A program made the position numbers and the translations under genes. A stretch of DNA of 64,000 nt, taken from NCBI GenBank assembly GCA_965222115.1, contig CBDCTJ010000007.1, positions 2,432,001 to 2,496,000 of the forward strand, read 5' to 3'. The notes beneath the pieces were generated by a model. That model did no database searches. It saw nothing but the letters and a program-made list of their open reading frames with translations, and was not told the origin of the DNA. The stretch is from Planctomycetota bacterium (GTDB lineage: Bacteria; Planctomycetota; PLA2; JAEUHO01). Shown piece by piece: positions 1 to 43,152 of the stretch. Position 1 is the stretch's first letter, and every line of letters begins with the position of its first letter.

Positions 1-2
1 AT

Positions 3-704
3 ACGCATATCCAGATCGAGCGCGGCAGCATTACGGCGTTCATTGGGCCTTCTGGTTGTGGGAAGAGCACGGCGCTTCGCTGTCTAAACCGAATGAACGA
101 TCTCATTCGTGGGTTTCGCTTCGAGGGGTCTATCTACTTTCGCGGCCAGGATATCTATGCCGCGGATGTGGATCCCGTGGCGGTACGTCGTCACATCGGC
201 ATGGTGTTTCAGCACCCCAACCCATTTGCTATGAGTGTCTACAAGAATGTGGCCTTTGGCCTAAAGCTAAATGGCTTCAAAGGGGACTATGACGAGCGTG
301 TTGAGAAAGCACTCCGCGGCGCCGCCATCTGGGAAGAAGTCAAAGACAAGCTGAATCAAAGCGGCCTGTCACTCTCCGGAGGGCAACAGCAGCGGTTGTG
401 CATTGCTCGCGCGATTGCAACGGAACCTGAAGTGCTGCTCATGGATGAGCCCTGCTCGGCCTTGGACCCCATCGCCACCCGTCGCATCGAAGAATTGATG
501 CAGGAGCTCAAGAAGAAATACACGATTGCCATTGTCACTCACAATCTCCAGCAGGCACAACGCGTTGCCGACAAAACGGCATTTATGTATGTCGATACTC
601 AGGGCGGCGGTCGTACCGGCTACTTGGTCGAGTACAGCGGCACAATCTTTGATGATCCGCAAGAGGACTCAACGAAGGAGTACATCCGTGGTGAGTTTAG
701 CTAG
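3..704 (+). CDS. pstB: Phosphate ABC transporter ATP-binding protein (5'-truncated by window edge)
   Basis: Frame is open upstream of 93 and reads GPSGCGKST (Walker A); also [30 protein letters not shown]. Confidence 0.95.
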
Positions 705-744
705 CGCACGTCGTCACACGGTTGGGCGGCGTCGGCGTGTCTGT

Positions 745-1797
745 ATGGCGATCTCCGTACTATGCATGGGGGGGAGCCTGCTCTGCCTGCTCTGCCTGCT
801 TCCTGCTTGCGGCGCCAGCGATGCCTCCCAGAACAAGGCCGCCGTATATCTTCGCGGCGCGGGGGCTACGTTCCCGAAACTCATCTACCAAAAGTGGATC
901 GAGACGTACGAACGAGAGCATCCAGCCATCGATATCGAATATGAGGCTGTCGGTAGTGGTGATGGGGTCAAGCGCTACCTTACAAACGAACCTGGGCTGA
1001 CCTTCGGGGCCAGCGATGTCGCGCCGAATCCGAATCAACTTGACATGGTCCAGCGAGGAGCGGTGCCGATACCTATGACCGCGGGGAGTATTGTGCTTGC
1101 CTACAATCTTCCTGGATTTGACGGCGAGTTGAGGCTCTCCCGCAACGTGATGGCCGGCATCTTTTTGGGCACCATTTCCCAATGGAATGACGAGCAGATC
1201 AAGGCCAGCAATCCCGGGAAGTCCTTGCCCGATCGCGCTATCACCGTGGCCGTCCGCATGGACGGATCAGGCACCACATCGGTGTTTACTGAACATCTCG
1301 CCGCCATTAGCCCTGCCTGGCGCGACGGCCCAGGGATAGGAAAGCGTATCGACTGGCCCTCGCGCACACTTCCAGGTCGAGGAAATGCAGGGGTCGCCGC
1401 ACGGATTCAGCGTTCTCCGGGGTCCATTGGTTACATCCAGTATGGCTTCGCCCAGAAACTGTCGTTGCCCCTGGCCACGTTGGAAAACAAGGCTGGCAGC
1501 TATATCGCGCCAAGTGGAACAAGCGGCACGGCCATGATTGCGAGCCTGAAACTCGATAAGTACTTATGTGGTAGTAACCCCGACCCCGATGGCAAAGACG
1601 CTTATCCCATCGGCTCCCTAACGTGGATCTTGGCATACGGACGATACACCGACACCGCCGAGTCCAAAGCGCTTCGAGACTTTCTCAGTTGGTGCTTGAG
1701 CGAAGGCCAGAGCTATGCAGAAGGTCAAGGGTATCTCCAACTGCCCGATCATGTTCGCAAGCGGGCACTTCAAGCCGTGGGTACGATTCAGCCCTAG
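745..1797 (+). CDS. pstS: Phosphate ABC transporter substrate-binding lipoprotein
   Basis: GAGATFP, VGSGDG, FGASD, RMDGSGTT motifs; lipobox-like LPAC; start at 745 is inferred. Confidence 0.93.
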   Translation: MAISVLCMGGSLLCLLCLLPACGASDASQNKAAVYLRGAGATFPKLIYQKWIETYEREHPAIDIEYEAVGSGDGVKRYLTNEPGLTFGASDVAPNPNQLDMVQRGAVPIPMTAGSIVLAYNLPGFDGELRLSRNVMAGIFLGTISQWNDEQIKASNPGKSLPDRAITVAVRMDGSGTTSVFTEHLAAISPAWRDGPGIGKRIDWPSRTLPGRGNAGVAARIQRSPGSIGYIQYGFAQKLSLPLATLENKAGSYIAPSGTSGTAMIASLKLDKYLCGSNPDPDGKDAYPIGSLTWILAYGRYTDTAESKALRDFLSWCLSEGQSYAEGQGYLQLPDHVRKRALQAVGTIQP

Positions 1798-1884
1798 TGC
1801 ACGTGCACGTGTGATGAGATTCAGTGCAGGCCTCCGCGCGTTCATCGATCGTTCGACGAGAGCGAACAGCCTGCAGGAGAACCC

Positions 1885-2541
1885 ATGATGGGTGCACGGC
1901 GTCTGAACCTCAAGTCGATTGAAGACTCGCTTCGTGCGGTCCAGAAAGACTTCCCGCGTATCAATTCGATCATCAAATCCAAGCGCGAACACATGTCGGA
2001 CGAGATCGTTGAGAATATGCTTGCGGGCTATGAACAGATCAATCGCTACCTAGCGAAAGATAAGCCGCTTCTTGTTCGCAAGCGTCGCGATCACGTATTG
2101 GAACTCAACCACACCGTGCTATGCGGCGCCGAATCCAAGCGCCGCAAGGAGTACAAGAAGCACATCGAGAAGACGCGTGAGCGTTTCTTTTTTGCCGATG
2201 GGTTCAATATTGACGTGTTGCTCGACTGGTATCTTCGACACCGAGATCGCTCGGTGTGGCGTCGCGCATCCGGTTGGTATACGCGCTCAGTGAGTCGTCC
2301 GCAGCTCTTCTTTGAAGGCAATCATCGAACCGGCGCATTGCTGATGAGCTACATGTTGGCCCGTAAGGGCCATCCCCCATTCGTTCTTTCCGTAGACAAT
2401 GCCAAGGGATACTTTGATCCCTCGTCCATGATTAAGCGTACGCACAAGAACAAGCGCACGCTCATGTTTCGCATTCCCGGCCTCGACAAGAAGTTCTCCA
2501 AGTTTTTGCGAGCCCACGCGGATGGTCGGCACTTGAAGTAG
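1885..2541 (+). CDS. Fic/Doc-like protein with degenerate motif
   Basis: RPQLFFEGNHRTGALLM resembles the Fic motif HPFxxGNGRxxR but lacks the catalytic His. Confidence 0.6.
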   Translation: MMGARRLNLKSIEDSLRAVQKDFPRINSIIKSKREHMSDEIVENMLAGYEQINRYLAKDKPLLVRKRRDHVLELNHTVLCGAESKRRKEYKKHIEKTRERFFFADGFNIDVLLDWYLRHRDRSVWRRASGWYTRSVSRPQLFFEGNHRTGALLMSYMLARKGHPPFVLSVDNAKGYFDPSSMIKRTHKNKRTLMFRIPGLDKKFSKFLRAHADGRHLK

Positions 2542-2547
2542 CGCCCG

Positions 2548-5500
2548 TTAGTTGCCAGCCACAGCCGCCAACGCCTTCTGCGCGGCCTTCGAGACTTTGA
2601 GGTTGGTGGAGCGAATGTGCTTCTTCAAAAACGTCTTGGCAGCCTTGGCGTCGGGCCCGATATCGCCAAAGGCGTTGATGGTTTGAATGAGGTCAAAACT
2701 TGTCTGGGTGCGTCCAATGGTCAGCAGAGGGCGAACGGCAGGTTTGCCGATCTTTGTGAGCGCGGTGAGCGCTTCCCATCGTTCCGTGTGTTGTGGATCC
2801 CGGTACATGGCGGCGAGTGGCTTAACAGCGCTCTTGGCCTCTTCGCCCATCATGCCCAGCACACGTATGGCGGCAACGCGCAAAGCGGGTTCCGTCGATT
2901 TGAGGTTAGATTTCATGAGCCTGACCGCCTCTTTGCCGCCCTTGGCAACCAACTGAATGGCTTCTTCGGAAAGTGCACGCGGCTTCTTGCCGATGTAGCC
3001 CAGCAAATCCTTTGTGGTGGCGTGACCCACGCGCTGCAACGCGCGAAGTGCATGCACGCGAATCGGATCGGGGTACGACTTGCTGGCGAGTAACGTATTG
3101 AGTGCGGCGACCGACGTGTCGCTATCATCGGCCACCGCTGCGAGCACCTTGGCTTCGCGTATGCCTCGCTTGGGATTCTTCTGAACGATTTCAAGCAAAT
3201 GGTCAATCGCACGATCGTTGGCGCGCCCAATTGCCGTCATGGCATCCAAGATGTCCCCGCGCACACTCGCGTGCAGTTTTCGCTTGAGCAAATCACCAAC
3301 GACGCCCGCAATGGGTGCAGCAACCGGCCCCAAACCGCGCGCAACGAGGACAGCACCGGGCACCGCGCGTTCATCTCGTCCGGAAAGGACCTTGCGCAAC
3401 ACTGGAATTGCCGGCTTGCCAAGTCGTATCAGACCCGCAATGCCTCCGCGCCACATGGCGTCGTCCTTTTCATAGAGCGCCGCACCAAAAATCTCTGCAA
3501 ACTCGGACTGTGGCAGTTTGAGTGTTGCAAAGGCCTCCTCGCCCATGCGACGAATCGTGGGCGACGGATGAATGAGTGCGCCGCATAGGTGAGGGGCCGC
3601 ACGCCGCGGGTTGGCGTGGGCGAGCGCAAGCATGGCCAAACGACGCACGCGCGAAGGACCCTTGTGAACCAAGGGAGCGATCTTGCTGGCATGCGACTTA
3701 ATGCGTTCCGGGGCAATCAACGTTAGCCGCTGGAGGATCGCCAGCCGATGTTCGTCATCGTCGGAGTCAAGTGCTGCGTGCAGTGCGGCCACCACATCAT
3801 CCGAGGCCTGTTGTTGGAAGCCCGCAAGGGCCAATGAAGCGACGGCCCTGATGGAGGCGTCGCTGCTCGTTAGGGATGACTTCAAGATTTTGATGGCAGT
3901 GTCTTCCCCAGGCACAAGCGCGAGTACCGCGGTTGCGGCTTGCGTAGAAACCGTTGTGACCGGATCCGTCATGGCCTTCGTCAGCGCTTCTTTGGCAGGG
4001 GTTGCGCCGTCTCGAGCGTGGGCTAAAGCAGCCGCAGCCGCCGTTCGAATGTCCGCATCACGATGTCTAAGCAAATCCGCGACGCGTCCGATTGCGGTTG
4101 CGGGCAGCGTGAGCTCGTGGGCGAAGCGAGTAAGCAACGTGCGCAGGACGGAGATGTCCTTTTCAGTCAAATGCGCGGCGAGCTTGGTTGTGCTCGAGCT
4201 TGCTTCATTTGGTAGGAAGGCGCGAATCGAGGCGGCTCGCAGTACGGGATCTTTGCTGCGCATGAAGGGCGAGACGACCTCGTCCAATCCGGGCATACGG
4301 TGCAGCGCAACAGCATCCAAGAGGTGCGCGCATTCATCAGCGTTCACCGATTCGCTTTGGAGTCGCGCTTTGATGTGTCGGTGCAAGTCGTTGTGCGGCG
4401 TGTGGTAGCCGTTTGCGAGTAGGCACAATACGCACATGCCGGTGGCATAAACGCGTCCACCATCGGGTCCCCACACGCACTCCGGATTCCACGATCCCGC
4501 ATAGCCGCATGCGTCGCCCGACGTGACTTGACTTGGGAGCAGGGCCTCGACCAAGGCGTTATCCCACCGCTTCCACGCTTCACCACCAACGGTCGCCATG
4601 GCTATTGTGCCGTAGTACCAATAGTAGAGATCTGTAGATCCACGCTTCCGGTCCCACCGAGGCAGTCGGGATAGCACTTGATTTTGACTGCGCTTGTTTA
4701 CACGATGCCATTCTTGCGGCATCTCAGTCGCTGTTGGCGACGTAAGCCGTATCGCCAATGCGCACGCTGTCATGGATCGAGATTCTTCGGCTGGAAACTC
4801 GTCGATCAATTCTATCGGGCGTGCGGATCCAACGATCTTCGAAAAGTACCCCGCGCGACCTAGCCGTGGGTTGATGATCTGCTCACACCATGCGAGCGCA
4901 CCCTTGAATGCCTTGTGCGGGACCGAAAACGAAGGCGCGACGCCACCGTGCCGAATGGCCAACTCGTTTAGACGCCACGCGGCGACCAGGGGCATAAGCA
5001 CAGATCCTGTCATGGACGTGTCGTTTTCACCCGGCCGAATGCCGTAGCGCCACGCAAGGTTCTCGTTTCGACACAATTCAATAAAGTCAATTGCTCGCTG
5101 AGCAATCGGAACGAGGTCACGATCGCCCGTAACGATCACGGCCATGACGAGTGCGTATGTAGCAAACGCATGATTGTACAAATAGTGCTGCGATGAACGC
5201 GGGCTGATACATCCCTCTTGATCCTGTACCTTCTTTAGATAGTCGATTCCCTTTTGCACCGTATGTCGAAAGGGACCCTTGCACTGGTGCCGATGGCCCG
5301 CCGTCAGAAACGCACGCAGCGCGATACCCGTGACCCCGACGTCGTAGGGGGACTTACCCGCCCCCTCGTTCTTGCGGGCGCCCTCGGCAACCTCCTTTCC
5401 ATGACACCAATGCCCGAACTCGGCGGCGCGCCAGCCGCCATCGGGCGCCTGATGTGCCGCGAGCCAACGAAGACCGTTCTCGATGGCCTGGATTCGTTCA

Positions 5501-11603: not shown

Positions 11604-11957
11604 CTAATCTCATGACCGATTACTTCATTCCGTCCACGTCCACCCTTCGATGCGCACCGTGTGGATCAAGGATCCGCTTGTGCTTACTCAGGGTCTCGTG
11701 CAGATGAACTCTGCTCATCTGATCTCGACGTCCACGTCCACGTTAAGGCGGTGCGAATCGTTTATCGGACGCCTGCCCTTGAGTACGGGTTATGGGTAGC
11801 GGGTGACGGGAGTTTGGAAGGCGCAACCGGTTGCTCCAGCGCGATCGGTACGCGCGCGCGCCGCTTGTGATGGAACTCCAGCTTGAGAACGAGTTGGCGT
11901 TGTGACGCGGGGCTCGGTTTGCGCGAACCGCTCGCGTGTGCCCTCCTTTGCCTTTCC

Positions 11958-12183
11958 TAGGTGAGACCTTTCTTCTTTAAGCTCAAGCCACGTCATATTT
12001 CAAGGCAACTCCACGCACACTCATGTCTCAGCCCGTAACGCTTGCGCTTCGTTTCTTAGCGTTCTTCGTGTGAGCTTCTTCTTCCAAGACCGTCCTGCCA
12101 TCGACAATCGTCAGCATTCACCAATCGCGATCCCCAACGCTTGCGCCTCTCCGCCTCTGCAACGTGGCGCCTCCGCGTGAGGT
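11958..12183 (+). repeat. Dispersed modular repeat, copy A
   Basis: Aligns by eye to the reverse complement of ~41000-41210 and to 42818-42950 (e.g. TGCGCTTCGTTTCTTAGCGTTCTTCGTGTGAGCT, CCCAACGCTTGCGCC). Confidence 0.75.
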
Positions 12184-12843: not shown

Positions 12844-12920
12844 GGGGGCATAGCTCAGCTGGCTAGAGCACTGGCTTTGCAAGCCAGGGGTCAAGGGTTC
12901 GAATCCCTTTGCCTCCACCA
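12844..12920 (+). tRNA. tRNA-Ala(UGC)
   Basis: Cloverleaf with GGGGGCA/TGCCTCC acceptor stem (G3:U70), anticodon arm CTGGC-TTTGCAA-GCCAG, TTCGAAT T-loop, encoded CCA. Confidence 0.97.
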
Positions 12921-14260
12921 CTTTCAATCCCGCAACAAACCAACGTTTCATCGGGTTCGTTGCGGGTTTCGCGTCGATCGCCTTCTGCGTTCCGCCTGTC
13001 CACTTGGTTGCAACCAGATGAGACCGAATGCACCGAAATGGCACCAGAAGGGGTACAAATTGGAGCACAGTCTGCTGCGTCTCCAGAGGCGAGCATCTCG
13101 CCGATCACATGAACGGATTCGGGCGCATTTACAGCCGAGCGGTGATCGAGCAAGCGCGGATCTGTATAGACCGACATCGTCGTTTCAATGTTGGCATGAC
13201 GCGCAAGATGCTGTGTTACTTGCGGGTCTACTTTCGCAGCACGCAGCCCGGTGACGAATGTGCATCGAAGGCTATGGAAATCTACGTAGCGGCCTTGCAT
13301 ATCCTGATACGCGATACCGGCCGCCTCCAAATCCTTGCGCATCGTACGCATGACAGGAATCCACCCAGAAGGAAACACCTTCGCATCTGGATTGTTCACT
13401 TCCGCTGACCGTTGTCGAAGGGCTGGCGCGAGGCAGGAGGGAAACGATGCGTACTGTTCCCGCCTGCTCTTGGCATTGGCGGCACGAATTCGAATCGTCT
13501 CACGCTCCAAATCGACGTCGGCCCATGTGATTGACCCGAGTTCTTTCCTGCGTATTCCGGTAAGGGCCGCGAATCCGTAGAGAAATGAGCGGCGAGAACC
13601 TTCCTTTGTCAATCGCACGCGCTCTTTTCCCGTGACTCCCTTGTGGATACGCGTCTTCAACGCATAGTCGAGCGGTCTAGCAGCGGCCGCCTGTATCAGC
13701 CTGGCGAGTTCTTCGGGCGCCAACGCTCTTCGCTCCCTAGCCCGATCCTCTGCCTCATTCCTCGGCTTGAGGGCCGTAAACGGATCTCTGCGCACCCGTT
13801 GATGTCGGTGGAGCCAGCGCCCGAACTGCCGAAGCGCCTGATAATGGCGGTTCACAGAGCGAGCGCGGAGGCCCTGATTTCCGATATCCGAGAGCCACCT
13901 CGCTGCGAGCGCACCGTCAAGTTGATCCAGCGATGTCAGCCGCGTATCTGTAACGAATCGGCGTAGACACTTCATACGGTCTGTGAAGTGTCCGTCGCTC
14001 ACTCGCCTTGACCGCAGTGCAGACTCAAAGTCAAGCACATGTTGCGCGAGGGGGCGCGTCGAATGCTCGTCAAAGTGATCCGTGAGCCCCGCAGCTTTCC
14101 GCTGTTCGGTGCGAATCATCTCAGCCTCGCGTGCTCCAGCCGCCCGCTTGTCAGTTAGCCCGGTTGACTTTCGAAATTTGCGGCCCTCAACACTGAAACG
14201 CGTCCACCAAACAGGCGAGAGCCTTCCCGACTTTGGGTTCTTGCGTCGATAGAGGCTCAT
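12863..14260 (-). CDS. int: Tyrosine recombinase/integrase
   Basis: Arm-binding N-terminus (WWTRF...RKSTGLTDKRAA); catalytic R (TGIRRKEL), K (NAKS), HxxR (FHSLR), H (ARH), Y (SVYT); the frame runs antisense through the tRNA 3' half. Confidence 0.95.
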   Translation of the reverse strand: MSLYRRKNPKSGRLSPVWWTRFSVEGRKFRKSTGLTDKRAAGAREAEMIRTEQRKAAGLTDHFDEHSTRPLAQHVLDFESALRSRRVSDGHFTDRMKCLRRFVTDTRLTSLDQLDGALAARWLSDIGNQGLRARSVNRHYQALRQFGRWLHRHQRVRRDPFTALKPRNEAEDRARERRALAPEELARLIQAAAARPLDYALKTRIHKGVTGKERVRLTKEGSRRSFLYGFAALTGIRRKELGSITWADVDLERETIRIRAANAKSRREQYASFPSCLAPALRQRSAEVNNPDAKVFPSGWIPVMRTMRKDLEAAGIAYQDMQGRYVDFHSLRCTFVTGLRAAKVDPQVTQHLARHANIETTMSVYTDPRLLDHRSAVNAPESVHVIGEMLASGDAADCAPICTPSGAISVHSVSSGCNQVDRRNAEGDRRETRNEPDETLVCCGIESGGGKGIRTLDPWLAKPVL

Positions 14261-14496
14261 CGCTTCCTTCCTCTCTGCTTCTCTAGAGCTTTCAAGCCAA
14301 TATCCAACGCCTCGCGGAATATAACGCTACGACTAATGGGCTTGTCCTTCGTACCGTGCCGCCTCTGCAGCCGCTTGGCCCGTTTCACAAGGTCCGCCGG
14401 AAGCCTCATGCTCACGAGCATTTCAGAAACGGTGCCGTACGGCTCTTTCTCGATTCGATTCTTCATAGGCATGAGTGTATCACAGATTGGTTTCAT
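14257..14496 (-). CDS. Ribbon-helix-helix (CopG-like) DNA-binding protein
   Basis: LVSMRLPADLV...ISRSVIFREAL; ATGA overlaps with xis upstream and int downstream. Confidence 0.7.
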   Translation of the reverse strand: MKPICDTLMPMKNRIEKEPYGTVSEMLVSMRLPADLVKRAKRLQRRHGTKDKPISRSVIFREALDIGLKALEKQRGRKR

Positions 14497-14705: not shown

Positions 14706-14833
14706 GGCCGTCCCCCTCTTCTCTTGCAAGGGGTTGTGTCCCTCAACGAGTTTCTGTCCGGTTGAGGACCTGAAATAGGGGTTGATAACGGCCTCTCCCA
14801 TTCGCTGCATAGGTGCGGCAGAAAGGGAGAGCG

Positions 14834-16156
14834 ATGAGCGAGAAACAGAGGTCAGATCGAGGATCGTCAGGCAAGGGGCGCGACGGGGGCGGGAAAGAGT
14901 TCCGTCCGCCGAGGCGCAATCGTTCGGTGGGAACGCGACGTCCCGGTTCCAAGGGGGAGTACTCTGGGGAAGAGCGGTTGTTGCTGTTGGACACATGGCA
15001 GCGATCGGGCTTGCCGGCGACGGAGTTTGGTCGCTTGGTGGGCATCACGCCTCAGACGTTGAGTCGTTGGAAGCAACGGTTTGATGCAGAAGGCCCTGCC
15101 GGGCTATTGGGCTATCGCCGTGGTCAGCGAGGCAGCCGCCTGCCGGAACATGTGCGTCGAGCCATTTTGATGTTGAAGGAACAGCATCCGGATTGGGGGC
15201 AAGACCGCATTCACGACATGTTGCTGCGCTCCCAAGGTCTGCAAGCCAGCGCGGGCGCGGTGCAGCGGGTGTTGAAGGAGGCGGGGTACGAGGTCCATGC
15301 TTTTCGGACGAGGCCCAACCCACCCAAGCCTCAGCGTTTTGAGCGCTCTCGTCCCAACGATCTTTGGCAAACCGATCTGTTCAGCTTTGTGCTCAAGCGC
15401 CAACGCCGCCGTGTGCACCTGGTTGCTTACATGGACGATCATTCCCGCTTCATCGTTGGGTATGGGCTGCATGCATCGGCTTCGGGCGCGCTTGTGCGCG
15501 AGGTGTTTGAGTCCTCGATTGCCAACTTTGGCGCGCCGAAGGAGATTTTGACCGACAACGGGACGCAGTTTCAGACGTGGCGTGGGAAGAGTGCGTTTAC
15601 CAAGCTCTGCGAGCGGCGAGGCATTAAGCAAGTTGTGGCGCGTCCACGGCGTCCGCAGACGCTGGGCAAGATCGAACGATTTTGGGGCACGATTCATCGG
15701 GAGATGATTCAAGCCGCCATTTTCCGTGACCTGGACGAGGCGCGCGAGCGCATTGCGCACTTTGTGGGCTATTACAACTTTCAACGCACCCATCAAGGGA
15801 TCGACGGCTTGGTACCGGCGGATCGCTACTTCGAGGCGGTGCCCGAGATACGCGCCACCATCGAGGCGAACGTGGCCAAGAACGCCAAAGAACTTTCCCT
15901 TCAAGGCAAACCGCGTAAGCATGTGTATTTGACGGGGCGTGTGGGTGAGGAGTCGATCTCGCTTCATACCGAGGGCACGAAGGTTGTACTCACGGGCGAA
16001 GAGGGTGTTCGCGAGGAAGTGGATCTTTCTGCGCCCGGGCGCCGTGTGTCGCTTGAGGCGTCGGATCCGGGCACGAGTTCATTGGATGAGGTGCTAACGG
16101 AACTTGAGACATTGACGCCGAGCGAGGCGAACGACGAGGAGGGAGGTGCAAGATGA
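14834..16156 (+). CDS. IS481-family DDE transposase
   Basis: N-terminal HTHs; WQTD, MDDHSRF, LTDNGTQF, GKIERFW. Confidence 0.9.
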   Translation: MSEKQRSDRGSSGKGRDGGGKEFRPPRRNRSVGTRRPGSKGEYSGEERLLLLDTWQRSGLPATEFGRLVGITPQTLSRWKQRFDAEGPAGLLGYRRGQRGSRLPEHVRRAILMLKEQHPDWGQDRIHDMLLRSQGLQASAGAVQRVLKEAGYEVHAFRTRPNPPKPQRFERSRPNDLWQTDLFSFVLKRQRRRVHLVAYMDDHSRFIVGYGLHASASGALVREVFESSIANFGAPKEILTDNGTQFQTWRGKSAFTKLCERRGIKQVVARPRRPQTLGKIERFWGTIHREMIQAAIFRDLDEARERIAHFVGYYNFQRTHQGIDGLVPADRYFEAVPEIRATIEANVAKNAKELSLQGKPRKHVYLTGRVGEESISLHTEGTKVVLTGEEGVREEVDLSAPGRRVSLEASDPGTSSLDEVLTELETLTPSEANDEEGGAR

Positions 16157-16611
16157 CCAAGGGACTTGCAGCGCTTCAAGGGAGCAAAGCGGCGAAGCGT
16201 TTCATGCTGGTGCTGTTGGAGGCACTGTCGGGCGCGTGCAGCACGACGGAAGCGGCCAAGCGCTTGGAGATCTCCAGTGCGCGGTACTACCAACTGGAGC
16301 TGCGTGCGCTTCAGGGAATGATGAGTGCGCTTGAGCCGCGTTGTAGGGGACGGCAGAACACGCCCGAGCGCATGATTTTGATGCTTGAGAAGGAGAAGCG
16401 TGATCTGGCACTGGAGCTACGACGTGCGCAGAACTTGTTGCGCGCGGCGCGGCGTACGGTGGGCATCAAAGCGTCGAAGAAGCGTGCGGGCACGAAGAAA
16501 AAGCGACGACGTAAGAAGCCACGGGCGCGCGTGGTGCTGGAGACGTTACGAGCAAAGGAGGTGGGCGATGGGTCGACGCAGCCAGACCGAACCCCTCATT
16601 CAGGCGCTTGA
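16153..16611 (+). CDS. HTH/coiled-coil accessory protein of the IS
   Basis: LEALSGACSTTEAAKRLEISSARYYQLE...ALEP; ATGA-coupled to the transposase. Confidence 0.75.
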   Translation: MTKGLAALQGSKAAKRFMLVLLEALSGACSTTEAAKRLEISSARYYQLELRALQGMMSALEPRCRGRQNTPERMILMLEKEKRDLALELRRAQNLLRAARRTVGIKASKKRAGTKKKRRRKKPRARVVLETLRAKEVGDGSTQPDRTPHSGA

Positions 16612-16969
16612 TGCCAGTGAGCTGGCGCGCGAGCGCGTAACGATCATTCTTCTCACGCTAACGGGTGATTGGAGCGTGGCCGATGCGATGGAGCGGCTCT
16701 CGATTTCGCGCACACGGTTCCAGGATCTTCGAAGGACGATGTTGCAAGCGGCACTGTTCGCGTTGGAACCGGGCCGAGCCGGACGCCCGCCTCGATCACG
16801 TGATCCGCGTAAAGAGGCCATGGAGTCATTGCGCAAAGAGATCGCGACCTTGGAACAGGATCTCAAACGCACGCGTGTGCAACTCGAGCTTGCTCGGGGT
16901 CCAGCGGCCAAAGCGATCCAGCGTCGATTGGAGAGTGCGTTTCTTTCCAAGACCTGGAGCAAGAAATGA
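16568..16969 (+). CDS. Second HTH/coiled-coil accessory protein, paralogue of the previous ORF
   Basis: AGGAGG SD; LLTLTGDWSVADAMERLSISRTRFQDLR...ALEP. Confidence 0.75.
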   Translation: MGRRSQTEPLIQALDASELARERVTIILLTLTGDWSVADAMERLSISRTRFQDLRRTMLQAALFALEPGRAGRPPRSRDPRKEAMESLRKEIATLEQDLKRTRVQLELARGPAAKAIQRRLESAFLSKTWSKK

Positions 16970-18084
16970 AAGTCTACGTCAGTTCCCAAGCGCAGTGCGC
17001 CCACGACCGCCGTGATCGCGCCGTGCAGGTGGTGCGAGCGGCCGCGCCTCAGGTGCGCGTTGCGGTGCGCAACGCGGTCGCCAGCACCGACCAGGTAAGT
17101 GAGCGAAGCATTCGGCGTTGGGATCAGCGTGAGCGCGAAGGCACACTGAAGCCTAAGAATCGTGGCCCCAAGCCGCGTGCCGTTGATCGGGACACGCGTC
17201 AAGGCGTGATTCTCCTCATGCTCGCCCTTGGGCCCTGCGCGGGTGTTGCACAGATTCGCTCGATGTTCGAAGAGGTTCCCTATCGCATGATCACAAGCAT
17301 GAAGAAGCGCCTAAAGCGCGTCCGGGAACGGCGTCGCGGACTGTACGAGCGGCGACTCAAGTGGATGCGTGCGGGCACGACATGGGCGATGGACTTTACC
17401 AAGCCCACCGCCAAACTTCCCGACGGCTACAAATGCTTGCTTGTGGTTCGCGACTTGGCGAGCGGGATGCGATTGACGTGTGTGCTGTGCAAAGGGGAGC
17501 GAACCAGCGAAGTGCTAAAGTGTCTGCGAACCCTCTTCGCGGCCTATGAGCCGCCGCTTGTGATGAAGCACGACGGCGGCCCGGCCTTCTTGGCCCACAA
17601 GACGCAGAAACTCCTAGAGTCCCGTGGCGTTGCGTCGTTGCGCTCGCCGGCCTACACGCCTTCGTACAACGGATCCGTGGAGCGCAGCCTTGGGTGGATG
17701 AAAAAGCGCATACAACACATCGCCCACCGCGAGGGCCATCCGGGCATCTGGGGCGCATGGGACATCGAACATGCACGGCGCCAAGCAAACGGAACGCTGC
17801 GCCCGTGGGGTCCAAGAGGACCTTCACCGATCGAGGCGTTTATGCAACGTGATCCCATTACGCCAATCGACCGAGAGGCATTCAAGCGTGCCGTCGATGA
17901 AGAAGCACAGCGTCAACTCGTAGCACACGCGCGAGATCCACGTAAGATGGATCGACCGATTGCGATGGACGTGCTGAAACGAAGATCAATCACACATGCG
18001 TTACAAAAACTCAAGTACTTAACGATTCGGAGAGGCCGAATATCAACACCCATTTCCCCAGAGCAACCGGACAGAAACTCGTGA
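16966..18084 (+). CDS. Second DDE (rve integrase-core) transposase
   Basis: WAMDFT, VRDLASG, KHDGGPAF, YNGSVER; stop codon lies within the right IR. Confidence 0.85.
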   Translation: MKVYVSSQAQCAHDRRDRAVQVVRAAAPQVRVAVRNAVASTDQVSERSIRRWDQREREGTLKPKNRGPKPRAVDRDTRQGVILLMLALGPCAGVAQIRSMFEEVPYRMITSMKKRLKRVRERRRGLYERRLKWMRAGTTWAMDFTKPTAKLPDGYKCLLVVRDLASGMRLTCVLCKGERTSEVLKCLRTLFAAYEPPLVMKHDGGPAFLAHKTQKLLESRGVASLRSPAYTPSYNGSVERSLGWMKKRIQHIAHREGHPGIWGAWDIEHARRQANGTLRPWGPRGPSPIEAFMQRDPITPIDREAFKRAVDEEAQRQLVAHARDPRKMDRPIAMDVLKRRSITHALQKLKYLTIRRGRISTPISPEQPDRNS

Positions 18085-18093
18085 GGGACACAT

Positions 18094-40894: not shown

Positions 40895-40930
40895 GCCGCT
40901 GGACGCGGCCTGAGATGGGGACGCTGCATT

Positions 40931-41230
40931 GGGAAGAAGCCTCTCACCAAGGGCAACCGTGGAATGGGGAGCACCCTGTGTAGTCGGTTCTTGGCCGCGC
41001 GCAGAGGCGCAGAGGGCGCAAGCGTTGGGGAGTGCAATTGGCGAGTGCGGATGTTCTTCGATGGCGGGGTATTGGCTGGAGAAAAGGAAGAAGAAGCTCA
41101 CACGAAGAACGCTAAGGAACGAAGCGCAGGCGCCGCAGACTAAACATTGAGCGTGCGTGGAATTGCGTTGTAGCGTGCCGCGGCTTGAAGAAGAAGGGTC
41201 TCACCAAGGGCACCAAGTTCACCAAGCGCA
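40931..41230 (-). repeat. Dispersed modular repeat, copy B
   Basis: Reverse complement aligns to copies A and C. Confidence 0.75.
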
Positions 41231-41481
41231 CTCGTTGAAAGGGGCGCTACGTTCCAAGTCGGTCCGATGTAGGAAAATGGCTCCAACGGGGCCAACGTTG
41301 ATAGCCCAGGATGCACATCGAGCGCAGCGAGATGAAATCCAGGGTTAATGGCCAAACAAGAAATTCGGCGCCCTGCAGGGGCGCAAGTGGGCTTGAAGCA
41401 ACAGACTTGGTGGAATGAGACGCTACGCAGTAGTGTATGGACTGACGTTGAGATTGACTCAACACTATCTAGTCGAGGCCC

Positions 41482-42786
41482 TTGCGCAAAATGTGGCGAC
41501 CTAAATGGCCCACCGTTTCCAAATGTGTCAAAGCGGCCTTTGGTGCATTACTTGTGCTGTTCATCGCGTCGTCCTCGGCTTGTGGCGATTGCAAGAACAC
41601 CGAGACAGTTGTCGAATTAGAGAGGCACGCGGCGGGCGGCGACTGTTCCTCTGCGTATCAACTCGGTCGCGTTGTGCCTCACGTGGCGATGCGTCTATTG
41701 CGAAATGCCACCGACAGTTCGATACGACGCACGCTCTTGGAAGGACTTGTTGCCAGCCGCTTCTCGAAACCTGATGGGTACATTCAGTTGCTAGATGAAC
41801 TGCTTGACCATGAGGACATTGAGACCACACATGCCGCGTTGCGGGCACTAGCCGTGGCGGGGTACCAACATACGACGGCGCTGGTCGCGGTGACTCGTGT
41901 TGCAGAGAGCGAGACGTATTCTATTTCGTTTCGTATCCGCGCCATTGAGTGGCTAGCGAGGCATGGCAAGCGAGCATCGAGTTTTCATCCGAAGCCCGAG
42001 GTGATCTTCTCAACGAAGCATCCGTACATTGTGCGTGCCTATGCGAAATTGGTTCGTTGGTCTGTCATTGATCACTTGACTCTCGGGAGCGCTTTCGCTG
42101 AGTGGCTCTCACGAAATCCAACTAGTGGCGCCAATCCAACATCACTATTTTTTGAGCACTTGCCTGACAATTCAAACTCAAGGCTTGTCGAGTTGGCGCT
42201 TGACTACTTGTCGCGAGGACATCCCGTGGATGTTGTTGCAGCCTTGTACTTCGCGCGACGATCCCGGGTATTGCGACGAAAGGCAAAGCGTCAGATAGAA
42301 CTAAAGATGGATGGCGGGGACGCACTTGCATTGGCTGCTGCGGAAGCAAGTGCGGACTTCGATCGTCCGCGGGCGCTAAAATTCTTGAAAGACGTAGTGC
42401 GCGTAGACAAGCAACTGCCCCCGGGCTACGTCGTGGATGCGATCGGACAACTGACTCGATTGTTGGAGCCCAGCGAGTTGGCCGAGTTCCTTGAAACGGT
42501 CACAAGTCCCAGCCCGTGGGTACGAATCAGGATTGCGGTTGCGCTGGCGAATGCGGGCTCGACGCCTGCGTCATCTGCAATAAACGCGCTCGTCGGGGAG
42601 ATTCTGAAGCCCGCCCCCAGGAGAACGCCGTTTAACGCTAGTCAAGCGGGGCTCGTTCTAGAGTGCCTGGCATTGACGAATCTTCAGTCAACGGATCTCG
42701 TACCACTCATCAAGCTCCGTTGCAAAGTCGATCCGTATGTCAGAGAAGCCATTACTGAGCTAGTCATCGACGTGGCGCATCGGTAG
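41482..42786 (+). CDS. Hypothetical exported helical-repeat (HEAT-like) protein
   Basis: Signal-like N-terminus; SPSPWVRIRIAVALA, DPYVREA. Confidence 0.6.
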   Translation: MRKMWRPKWPTVSKCVKAAFGALLVLFIASSSACGDCKNTETVVELERHAAGGDCSSAYQLGRVVPHVAMRLLRNATDSSIRRTLLEGLVASRFSKPDGYIQLLDELLDHEDIETTHAALRALAVAGYQHTTALVAVTRVAESETYSISFRIRAIEWLARHGKRASSFHPKPEVIFSTKHPYIVRAYAKLVRWSVIDHLTLGSAFAEWLSRNPTSGANPTSLFFEHLPDNSNSRLVELALDYLSRGHPVDVVAALYFARRSRVLRRKAKRQIELKMDGGDALALAAAEASADFDRPRALKFLKDVVRVDKQLPPGYVVDAIGQLTRLLEPSELAEFLETVTSPSPWVRIRIAVALANAGSTPASSAINALVGEILKPAPRRTPFNASQAGLVLECLALTNLQSTDLVPLIKLRCKVDPYVREAITELVIDVAHR

Positions 42787-42817
42787 CGTCCAGACCTCCG
42801 CTCGTTTCGGCCCGCTA

Positions 42818-43040
42818 CGCCTGCGCTTCGTTTCTTAGCGTTCTTAGTGTGAGCTATTTCTTCAAGCACCGTTCCGCCACCTCCAAACACCCGCATTCAC
42901 CGACTGCCATCCCAAACGCTTGCGCCCCTCTGCGCCTCTGCGGTCTCTGCGCGCGGCTAAAACCGACTAAACAAGAAACTCCTCGTTCTCCGGTTGCGCT
43001 TGGTGATCTTGGTGTCCTTCGTGAGAACCTTCTTCTTCAA
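42818..43040 (+). repeat. Dispersed modular repeat, copy C
   Basis: Colinear with the reverse complement of 40931-41132 over ~200 bp. Confidence 0.75.
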
Positions 43041-43116
43041 ACGGCGCCACACAACCAATCACGTACGCTCCCGCCAAACAACGCACCCCAACGCTTGCGC
43101 TCCTCTGTTTGGCGCA

Positions 43117-43152
43117 CAAAGAAACCCGGCCTCCCCAACGGGAAGACCGGGT
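43117..43152 (-). terminator. Intrinsic terminator downstream of the DUF533-like gene
   Basis: Minus-strand hairpin ACCCGGTCTTCCC/GGGGAGGCCGGGT followed by TTCTTT. Confidence 0.7.

Follow-up and report, generated by a model that had tools for sequence, protein, structure and literature searches.

An insertion sequence of Planctomycetota that carries two divergent DDE transposase genes and two paralogous helix-turn-helix genes

Members of the IS481 family carry a single transposase open reading frame (ORF) in a length of roughly 1–1.3 kb, and those of the IS3 family combine orfA, with its helix-turn-helix (HTH) and leucine zipper, with orfB, which encodes the rve domain, the two being translated as an OrfAB fusion by means of −1 frameshifting. 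Truncated or altered derivatives of transposases are often encoded by insertion sequence (IS) elements as regulators. To our knowledge, all well-studied simple ISs of the rve class use one transposase for every chemical step, and the only established heteromeric transposase is that of Tn7, a DDE (Asp-Asp-Glu) enzyme working together with a restriction-type nuclease. The Tn7 heteromer is made of TnsA, which has a restriction-endonuclease fold and not a DDE one, and TnsB, with the AAA+ protein TnsC and target selectors besides, and it gives 5-bp target duplications. Another transposon with more than one recombinase is Tn554, which encodes the tyrosine recombinases TnpA and TnpB plus TnpC, generates no target duplication and has no terminal inverted repeats (TIRs). 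As described in the part of PMC10045372 available to us, IS481 members have TG...CA TIR ends and target duplications of 2–15 bp, mostly of 6 bp, and the ISNCY group of ISfinder includes large IS3/IS481-related elements “with passenger genes”, such as ISArsp14 and ISBli29. Here, we describe an IS element having two different rve transposases, found at positions 14735–18092 of a 64,000-nucleotide stretch, hereafter called the window, of a Planctomycetota bacterium (GenBank assembly GCA_965222115.1, contig CBDCTJ010000007.1, positions 2,432,001 to 2,496,000 of the forward strand). We suggest, with a probability of about 60% and on comparative grounds, that it is an autonomous and recently active member of a conserved IS family with a four-gene module, in which both DDE proteins would be catalytic and needed, and would work in a heteromeric transpososome.

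The element, its ends and its four genes

The element measures 3358 bp, starts with TGTG and ends with CACA within its TIRs, and contains four co-oriented genes, here called T1, H1, H2 and T2, as follows:

14735..18092, plus strand: whole element, 3358 bp; a second copy is 100% identical across exactly the same span, and the flanks diverge directly outside
14735..14804, plus strand: left TIR, bipartite, with a terminal block of ~30 nt (TGTGTCCCTCAACGAG...) and an inner block (GAAAT.GG.GTTGATA.CGGCCTCTCC)
14813..16156, plus strand: T1, IS481-type DDE transposase, 447 residues from GTG 14813 (ORF calling, domain scan)
16153..16611, plus strand: H1, 152 residues, with a three-helix HTH, a long helix (71–103) and a basic tail
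16568..16969, plus strand: H2, a 133-residue paralogue of H1 (HTH and coiled coil) starting with MGRRS
16966..18084, plus strand: T2, second and divergent DDE transposase, 372 residues, with D143, D203 and E239
18023..18092, minus strand: right TIR, overlapping the 3′ end of T2

The boundaries of this element are fixed independently of its TIRs, because the second copy, found in the same genome (7 contigs, 4.55 Mb) on the minus strand at G000:C7:3063957-3067314, is identical to the window copy from nucleotide 1 to 3358, the flanking DNA of both copies being unlike from the first base beyond the ends, and because a 154-bp left-end relic elsewhere in that genome opens at the same base as the full element. 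The presence of an identical full-length second copy also means that the element moves as one unit. It was in an earlier note on the window, drawn from its letters alone, where a single TIR pair surrounding four co-oriented and overlapping ORFs was first proposed, and both this proposal and the accompanying remarks, that no internal repeat pair was visible and that the tight overlaps speak against a simple nesting of two ISs, agree with the duplication of the whole 3358 bp and with the joint divergence of the four genes given below. The TIRs are imperfect and ~70 bp long, the two ends being alignable over about 64–70 nt from the exact tips at 14735 and 18092, with a perfect core of 19 nt (14746–14764 and 18064–18082) and a second matching block (14789–14804 and 18023–18038), in the pattern TGTGTCCCTCA(A)CGAGTTTCTGTCCGGTTG, seven unlike nucleotides, GAAAT.GG.GTTGATA, and CGGCCTCTCC. 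The tips, TGTGTCCC...GGGACACA, are TG...CA termini as in the IS481 family, and each end is composed of two unlike conserved blocks, one terminal and one inner. No copy of the TIR was found inside the element, where, apart from its own ends, only short matches at chance level occur.

The two ends differ from each other in register, given that the left one has an additional nucleotide within its first ~15 nt (CTCAACG vs. CTC-ACG at the right end of the window element), and the right one has an additional nucleotide between the inner sub-blocks. The extra nucleotide of the left end is present in 10 of 11 aligned four-gene elements, the exception (L089) aligning differently, and also in the G276 relative (judged by eye) and in three elements of the sister family described below (read from alignments), and the retention of this difference across such divergence points to functionally distinct ends. 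In addition, the inner block of the right TIR encodes the conserved C-terminal peptide of T2, RRGR(I/L)STPI, which is RRGRISTPI in the window (18023–18084), and therefore protein and DNA-site constraints coincide in this segment.

Stop and start codons overlap within an ATGA at the T1/H1 and H2/T2 junctions, and the 3′ end of H1 overlaps H2 by 44 nt in a different frame. The ATG at 14835, preceded by AAGGGAGAG, is a likelier start of T1 than the GTG at 14813, and the H2 ORF opens at 16385, with the start conserved in relatives (MGRRS) being located at 16568. T1 contains N-terminal HTH_28/HTH_32 domains followed by rve and rve_3 (Pfam), besides a C-terminal extension of ~100 residues, and it passes the IS481 equivalog model of NCBIfam (NF033577) with 230.1 bits against a cut-off of 224, staying below the IS3 cut-off (152.9 vs. 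160 bits). T2 has a Pfam rve match (E 2e-12) and falls far under every curated NCBIfam IS-family cut-off, scoring 66.3 bits against the IS481 model and 51.9 bits against that of IS3, and T1 and T2 are barely alignable with each other (BLASTP E 0.06). In T2, two N-terminal helical DNA-binding-like modules are followed by the rve core and a helical C-terminal region, with a lysine (K246) at position E+7. The structure of T2 predicted from 66 sequences, with a mean predicted local distance difference test score (pLDDT) of 89.4, has a complete RNase-H-like core, and the model matches the prototype foamy virus (PFV) intasome (E 2.8e-10) and TnsB of ShCAST (E 2.2e-9), in agreement with the T2 sequence profile, which finds the Rous sarcoma virus (RSV) integrase in the PDB (E 9.8e-9). 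Both catalytic triads are intact, D188/D248/E288 in T1 and D143/D203/E239 in T2, and thus the assignment of an IS481-type transposase and a second rve protein, each with its triad, made earlier from the window, is sustained.

The same is true for the paralogy of the two HTH proteins, since H1 and H2 align with a BLASTP E of 1e-9 (36% over 69 residues) and, by profile–profile comparison, with a probability of 99.3% (E 4.5e-20, 99 columns). The H1 model (pLDDT 82.2) has a three-helix HTH at residues 12–60, a long helix at 71–103 and a basic tail. No Pfam family matched H1 at E≤0.01 and no PDB structure matched its model at E≤0.001, the top ones being the generic HTH regulators ArdK and KorA with E about 0.2. 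The ESM-Atlas neighbours of H1 are planctomycete hypothetical proteins and clusters with HTH_28/HTH_Tnp_1, one of them automatically named “leucine-zipper of insertion element” (score 0.94). In the Pfam and NCBIfam scans, the four proteins gave HTH and rve domains only, with neither an ATPase nor a TnsA-like domain, and the lack of an AAA ATPase noticed before is therefore upheld. A sigma-70 promoter scan gave 0 sites, and an Rfam scan gave only tRNA.

Through T1 and its TG...CA ends, the element is linked to the IS481/IS3 group of DDE insertion sequences. With the IS481 family it shares the curated model passed by T1, the TG...CA TIRs, and the order of N-terminal HTH and rve core, and it differs by having four conserved ORFs, two of them of the rve type, in 3358 bp, instead of a single ORF in roughly 1–1.3 kb, as well as by its 70-bp bipartite TIRs and by a second rve transposase that fails the IS481 model. 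With IS3 it shares the OrfA layout of H1 and H2 (HTH and long helix), the rve gene placed after H2 in the −1 frame, and the TG...CA ends, whereas T2 is provided with a start codon and N-terminal DNA-binding modules of its own, the element encodes an IS481-type transposase in addition, and both transposases score under the IS3 cut-off, in a comparison made with no slippery-site search. The likeness to Tn7 lies in the idea that one element has its ends processed by two different catalytic proteins, in the TnsB-like fold of the T2 core and in the asymmetric left and right ends, but neither an ATPase nor a TnsA-like domain was found in the domain scans, and the AAA+ ATPase regulator of Tn7-like elements, Tn5053, Mu, IS21 and Tn552 has no counterpart among the four proteins. 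Finally, Tn554 is similar in being a small transposon with two paralogous recombinases of one class and, as is apparently the case here, no target duplications, but those are tyrosine recombinases and not DDE enzymes, and Tn554 is devoid of terminal inverted repeats.

Conservation of the gene set and of both catalytic triads

T2 relatives were searched in six frames in 401 genomes of the phylum (E≤1e-20) and were found in 30 of them, including the genome of the window. Thirteen genome loci were read by tblastn and ORF reading, and T1-H1-H2-T2 were present in the same order and strand in 11, two of which are cut by a contig end, with the H2 of L051 being recognised through ORF reading only. The remaining two, L050 and L053 (genomes G249 and G378), contain only N-truncated T2 fragments, and we discarded them as independent T2-only elements given that their T2 matches begin at query residues 89 and 90, as in truncated relics. 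In metagenome contigs, a scan with the T2 alignment gave 80 loci, which were then searched with hidden Markov models (HMMs) of the four proteins, and T1, H1 and H2 were found in order in 26 of the 29 loci whose contig extends 2600 nt or more upstream of T2; the other three are two 5′-truncated T2 fragments (L099 and L132) and an N-truncated T2 whose core is disrupted by an insert and which abuts an unrelated convergent gene (L110). Shorter metagenome contigs hold as much of the T1-H1-H2-T2 array as fits. Looking from the other side, 17 genomes contain T1 relatives with an identity of 53% or more; in 12 of these genomes T2 accompanies T1 on its contig, and in the remaining five T1 lies at a contig end. 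Hence, since T2 alone corresponds to relics and T1 alone to contig ends, there is no intact independent half in the data searched. The earlier note had pointed to the conservation of the four-gene order within TIRs as its check, which these counts provide, and to the independent occurrence of either half as an argument against it, and full-length T2 was never found alone in the data searched.

Two relatives are present in multiple copies: a 3.41-kb one in genome G279, with five copies 98.5–100% identical, and a 4.29-kb one in genome G276, with two copies 99.95% identical. Four of the five G279 copies form two inverted pairs, on contigs G279:C44 and G279:C26, enclosing about 24 kb and about 10 kb, and these may be composite-transposon-like structures or IS-mediated inversions. 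In many distant members, the HMM matches of H2 and T2 are ~80–510 nt apart, and therefore an OrfAB-type fusion is not expected; a frameshift fusion of H1 with H2 or of H2 with T2 was considered too, and it is unlikely with genes ~50–510 nt apart in distant members. According to NCBI records, T2 relatives occur in metagenome-assembled genomes (MAGs) assigned to Planctomycetota, Myxococcota, Acidobacteriota and Candidatus Polarisedimenticolia, and they are labelled only “DDE-type integrase/transposase/recombinase” or “transposase family protein”. T2 gave no match in 72,556 plasmid records, and a single locus was obtained when genome contigs were scanned with single-protein patterns.

Further T1 relatives form a second tier, with 34–48% identity to T1, and it was in this tier that a three-gene sister family was recognised. 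Five of these loci were retrieved (L144–L146, L148 and L149, from genomes G226, G199, G240, G034 and G359), with T1′ proteins 40–48% identical to T1, the sixth retrieved locus (L147) being a closer-tier member limited by its contig. All five contain T1′-H′-T2′, with a single H-like HTH/coiled-coil gene and a T2′ of about 360–390 residues that aligns to T2 with Asp, Asp and Glu in place, both DDE triads being intact. The sister TIRs, TGTGCCGCTCAACGAAATGATTTCC...GCCGCCTC, can be recognised as homologues of the four-gene TIRs. Given that this family retains both enzymes with only one H gene, the pairing of two DDE proteins predates the H1/H2 duplication. The N-terminus of T1′ has two tandem HTH modules.

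The divergence of the four genes was followed in 30 elements with almost complete copies of all of them, namely, the window element, 6 from genome loci and 23 from metagenome loci (L011 was left out because its T1 is cut by a contig end), and the dN/dS ratios (nonsynonymous to synonymous rates) in nine pairs, with the reported values being those of the informative comparisons, given that for some genes one pair had diverged too little and another was too saturated:

T1: mean pairwise identity 63%, minimum 50%; dN/dS 0.08–0.31
H1: mean pairwise identity 43%, minimum 26%; dN/dS 0.14–0.34
H2: mean pairwise identity 38%, minimum 22%; dN/dS 0.21–0.50
T2: mean pairwise identity 39%, minimum 27%; dN/dS 0.17–0.39

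All four genes are under purifying selection. The six pairwise comparisons of protein distance matrices gave Mantel r values of 0.76–0.89, with 0 of 2000 permutations reaching the observed value for any pair, and since these are related elements with shared ancestry uncorrected, the result indicates co-inheritance as a unit from a common ancestor. The D/D/E residues of T1 and those of T2 are invariant in 30 of 30 elements, those of T2 also in 66 of 66 aligned proteins of its family, and the lysine at E+7 (K246) is kept in 7 of 7 close T2s. A role of the second DDE protein in targeting, as proposed in the earlier note, fits less well with T2 residues that are invariant in all 30 elements and conserved in the five sister members.

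Target sites, relics and genomic setting

Both flanks were available for 18 insertions, two in the genome of the window, five in G279, two in G276 and nine on metagenome contigs. A direct repeat of at least 3 bp was found at the junctions of only two of them, GGAT in L059 and AGC in one G279 copy, with the other 16 showing 0–2 bp, as compared with the 2–15 bp, mostly 6 bp, given for IS481 in the part of PMC10045372 cited above. Shuffled pairings of left and right flanks gave a mean of 0.33 repeats, and two or more in 3.8% of trials (P=0.038), and a target duplication of 3–4 bp is a faint hint at most. The additional copies by which the earlier note hoped to define the duplication were thus found, but they define no consistent one. 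The offset repeats ACGAC and CTCG (G279) and AGCT (L111), each shifted by 2 nt, were also considered and are indistinguishable from chance. Comparison by eye of the flanks across copies, where a match is expected after inversion between inverted copies, gave none in the genome of the window and one in G279, the 4-bp ACCT between the left flank of one copy and the right flank of its inverted partner. Any target duplications could have been lost when copies recombined, or in assemblies that are chimeric across the repeat. An orthologous empty site was searched with copy 2 plus its flanks in 29 genomes of the family, and none was found.

The public runs listed as containing the element are four, all of a single study and kept as contigs, with no RNA run among them, and their contigs reproduce the three left junctions already known, together with the right junction of each of the two copies. 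The X4 contig that joins the flanks of copy 2 is not an independent proof of linkage, because the flanks of copy 1 are barely covered there. The left flank of copy 2 (G000:C7:3067315-3067580) belongs to a non-coding repeat, ~270 bp long and dispersed in the genome, where its partial matches are counted in dozens, and having relatives in the window at about 40915–43140 and 11644–12082. This repeat finishes with a hairpin-containing motif (GCGAATCTCTGATTCGC...) exactly at the start of copy 2. Given that the paralogues of this repeat stop where the IS starts, they give no empty site.

The 154-bp left-end relic (G000:C7:364508-364661) is fused to a ~1.06-kb segment having 97% identity to C7:2979550-2980611, the two meeting at a microhomology of 9 bp, and this junction looks like a deletion or rearrangement scar. 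Besides, two diverged solo pieces resembling the left end are found at G000:C1:470807-470870 and G000:C4:4551-4598, the first one retaining the inner repeat block, the ribosome-binding-like AAGGGAGA and an ATG before entering other sequence, and both are possibly relics of older related elements.

Regarding the neighbourhood of the window copy, a tRNA-Ala (12844–12920, plus strand) overlaps the 3′ end of a tyrosine integrase gene (12863–14260, minus strand), beyond which a small gene (14257–14496, minus strand) and an HTH_17 excisionase-like gene (14493 to about 14708, minus strand) follow. This layout places the window copy inside, and near the edge of, an element integrated at the tRNA-Ala. 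The window copy lies directly upstream of the excisionase-like gene.

A proposed cooperation of two DDE transposases and the alternatives

The four genes are probably expressed as one tightly coupled operon between the long bipartite TIRs and, if both DDE proteins are catalytic and needed, each end, with its terminal and inner blocks, would recruit both transposases, while H1 and H2 would probably work as end-binding or bridging factors. The two enzymes would then share out the chemistry by strand, by end or by step, three possibilities that we leave unranked. In a division by strand, one enzyme would cleave and join the transferred 3′ strand and the other would cut the second strand, which is the arrangement of TnsB and TnsA in Tn7; a division by end would fit the conserved 1-nt difference in register between left and right; and a division by step would separate copy-out from paste-in. 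Regarding H1 and H2, the predicted pairing scored 0.58 vs. 0.00 for the best control, with runs agreeing in at least 79% of the contacts and a partner pLDDT of at least 69, in a calibration where 58 of 80 solved complexes attain the pairing mark, as do 2 of 110 mismatched pairs, with scores of 0.60 or less in only 7 of those 80 and in both mismatches. This prediction gives weak support to H1-H2 pairing. A more specific proposal goes further, namely, that this is the first example of a new IS family, occurring at least in Planctomycetota and in MAGs labelled Myxococcota and Acidobacteriota, with four-gene and three-gene forms, and having an obligate two-DDE heteromer that divides the work by strand, end or step, OrfA-like bridging proteins and no staggered cut of the target, and we regard it as tentative, with somewhat less than even odds.

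Several points weigh against a heteromeric transpososome. The predicted H1-H2 score falls in the weak range, and paralogous coiled coils could equally homodimerise. No experiment or interaction result ties T1 to T2, the Mantel correlation reflects co-inheritance and not necessarily functional coupling, and the conservation of the triads is evidence of constraint and not proof that both enzymes act on the ends of the element. The lack of a consistent target duplication (2 of 18 insertions) is unexpected for DDE transposition of the rve type, and the public contigs of the four runs contain neither a joint nor a circle junction nor an empty site.

The first alternative to be considered is that the gene set is a redundant fusion, with an IS3-like orfA/orfB unit (H2-T2) placed in or beside an IS481-like element, and with either transposase alone being enough to mobilise it. 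It is true that H2 and T2 resemble orfA and orfB, since H2 has an HTH and a coiled coil and T2 follows in the −1 frame with a stop/start overlap, that the ESM-Atlas neighbours of H1 include HTH_28/HTH_Tnp_1 proteins and the one named after an insertion-element leucine zipper, and that T1 alone passes the IS481 model. However, redundancy should have led to decay in some lineages, and instead the four genes are open, selected and co-diverging down to 27% identity in T2 and 50% in T1, both triads are invariant in 30 of 30 elements, there are no internal TIRs, no intact T1-only or T2-only relatives are found, and the sister family keeps both enzymes, all of which makes this explanation improbable. 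A nested or composite IS was rejected on similar evidence (no internal repeats, no solo intact T2, and four genes that co-diverge). We consider it just as improbable that one rve protein, T2 more probably than T1, has no catalytic role and serves as a regulator, an inhibitor or a selector of targets, with T1 performing all the chemistry. This would be in line with the faster evolution of T2 (mean pairwise identity of 39% vs. 63% for T1), with its position far under every curated IS-family cut-off, and with the frequent use of truncated or altered transposase derivatives as IS regulators, but D143, D203 and E239 do not vary in any of the 30 elements or of the 66 family proteins and are retained in the sister family, the E+7 lysine is present in 7 of 7 close T2s, and the T2 model predicts a complete RNase-H-like core with high confidence.

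A different kind of objection is that the arrangement is already catalogued in ISfinder, perhaps under a large IS481-family or ISNCY entry that has additional ORFs, which we consider unlikely, but less so than the two explanations above. ISfinder does contain, as stated in the part of PMC10045372 available to us, the large IS3/IS481-related ISNCY elements “with passenger genes”, and a family present in 30 of 401 genomes of the phylum is common enough for curators to have met it. On the other hand, no description was found when full-text literature was searched, the relatives of T2 carry only generic NCBI names, T2 lies far below all NCBIfam IS-family cut-offs, and no match exists in the 72,556 plasmid records. 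More generally, no account of an IS with two rve transposases was found in these searches of full-text literature, ISfinder not being among the sources compared, and the part of PMC9208149 available to us contains nothing relevant on a two-transposase IS. Cataloguing in ISfinder aside, the family is widespread and apparently undescribed, and we found no precedent for a conserved two-transposase gene set in an IS of the IS481/IS3 lineage.

In summary, the retention of two divergent and intact DDE enzymes, with T2 down to 27% identity and in both four-gene and three-gene forms, would imply that integrase-like enzymes cooperate within one small transposon. Assigning the strand, the end or the step to each enzyme would reveal a new solution to the handling of the second strand and to the asymmetry of the ends, and the family is experimentally tractable for this purpose, with its 3.4 kb, its defined ends and its apparent absence of target duplication.

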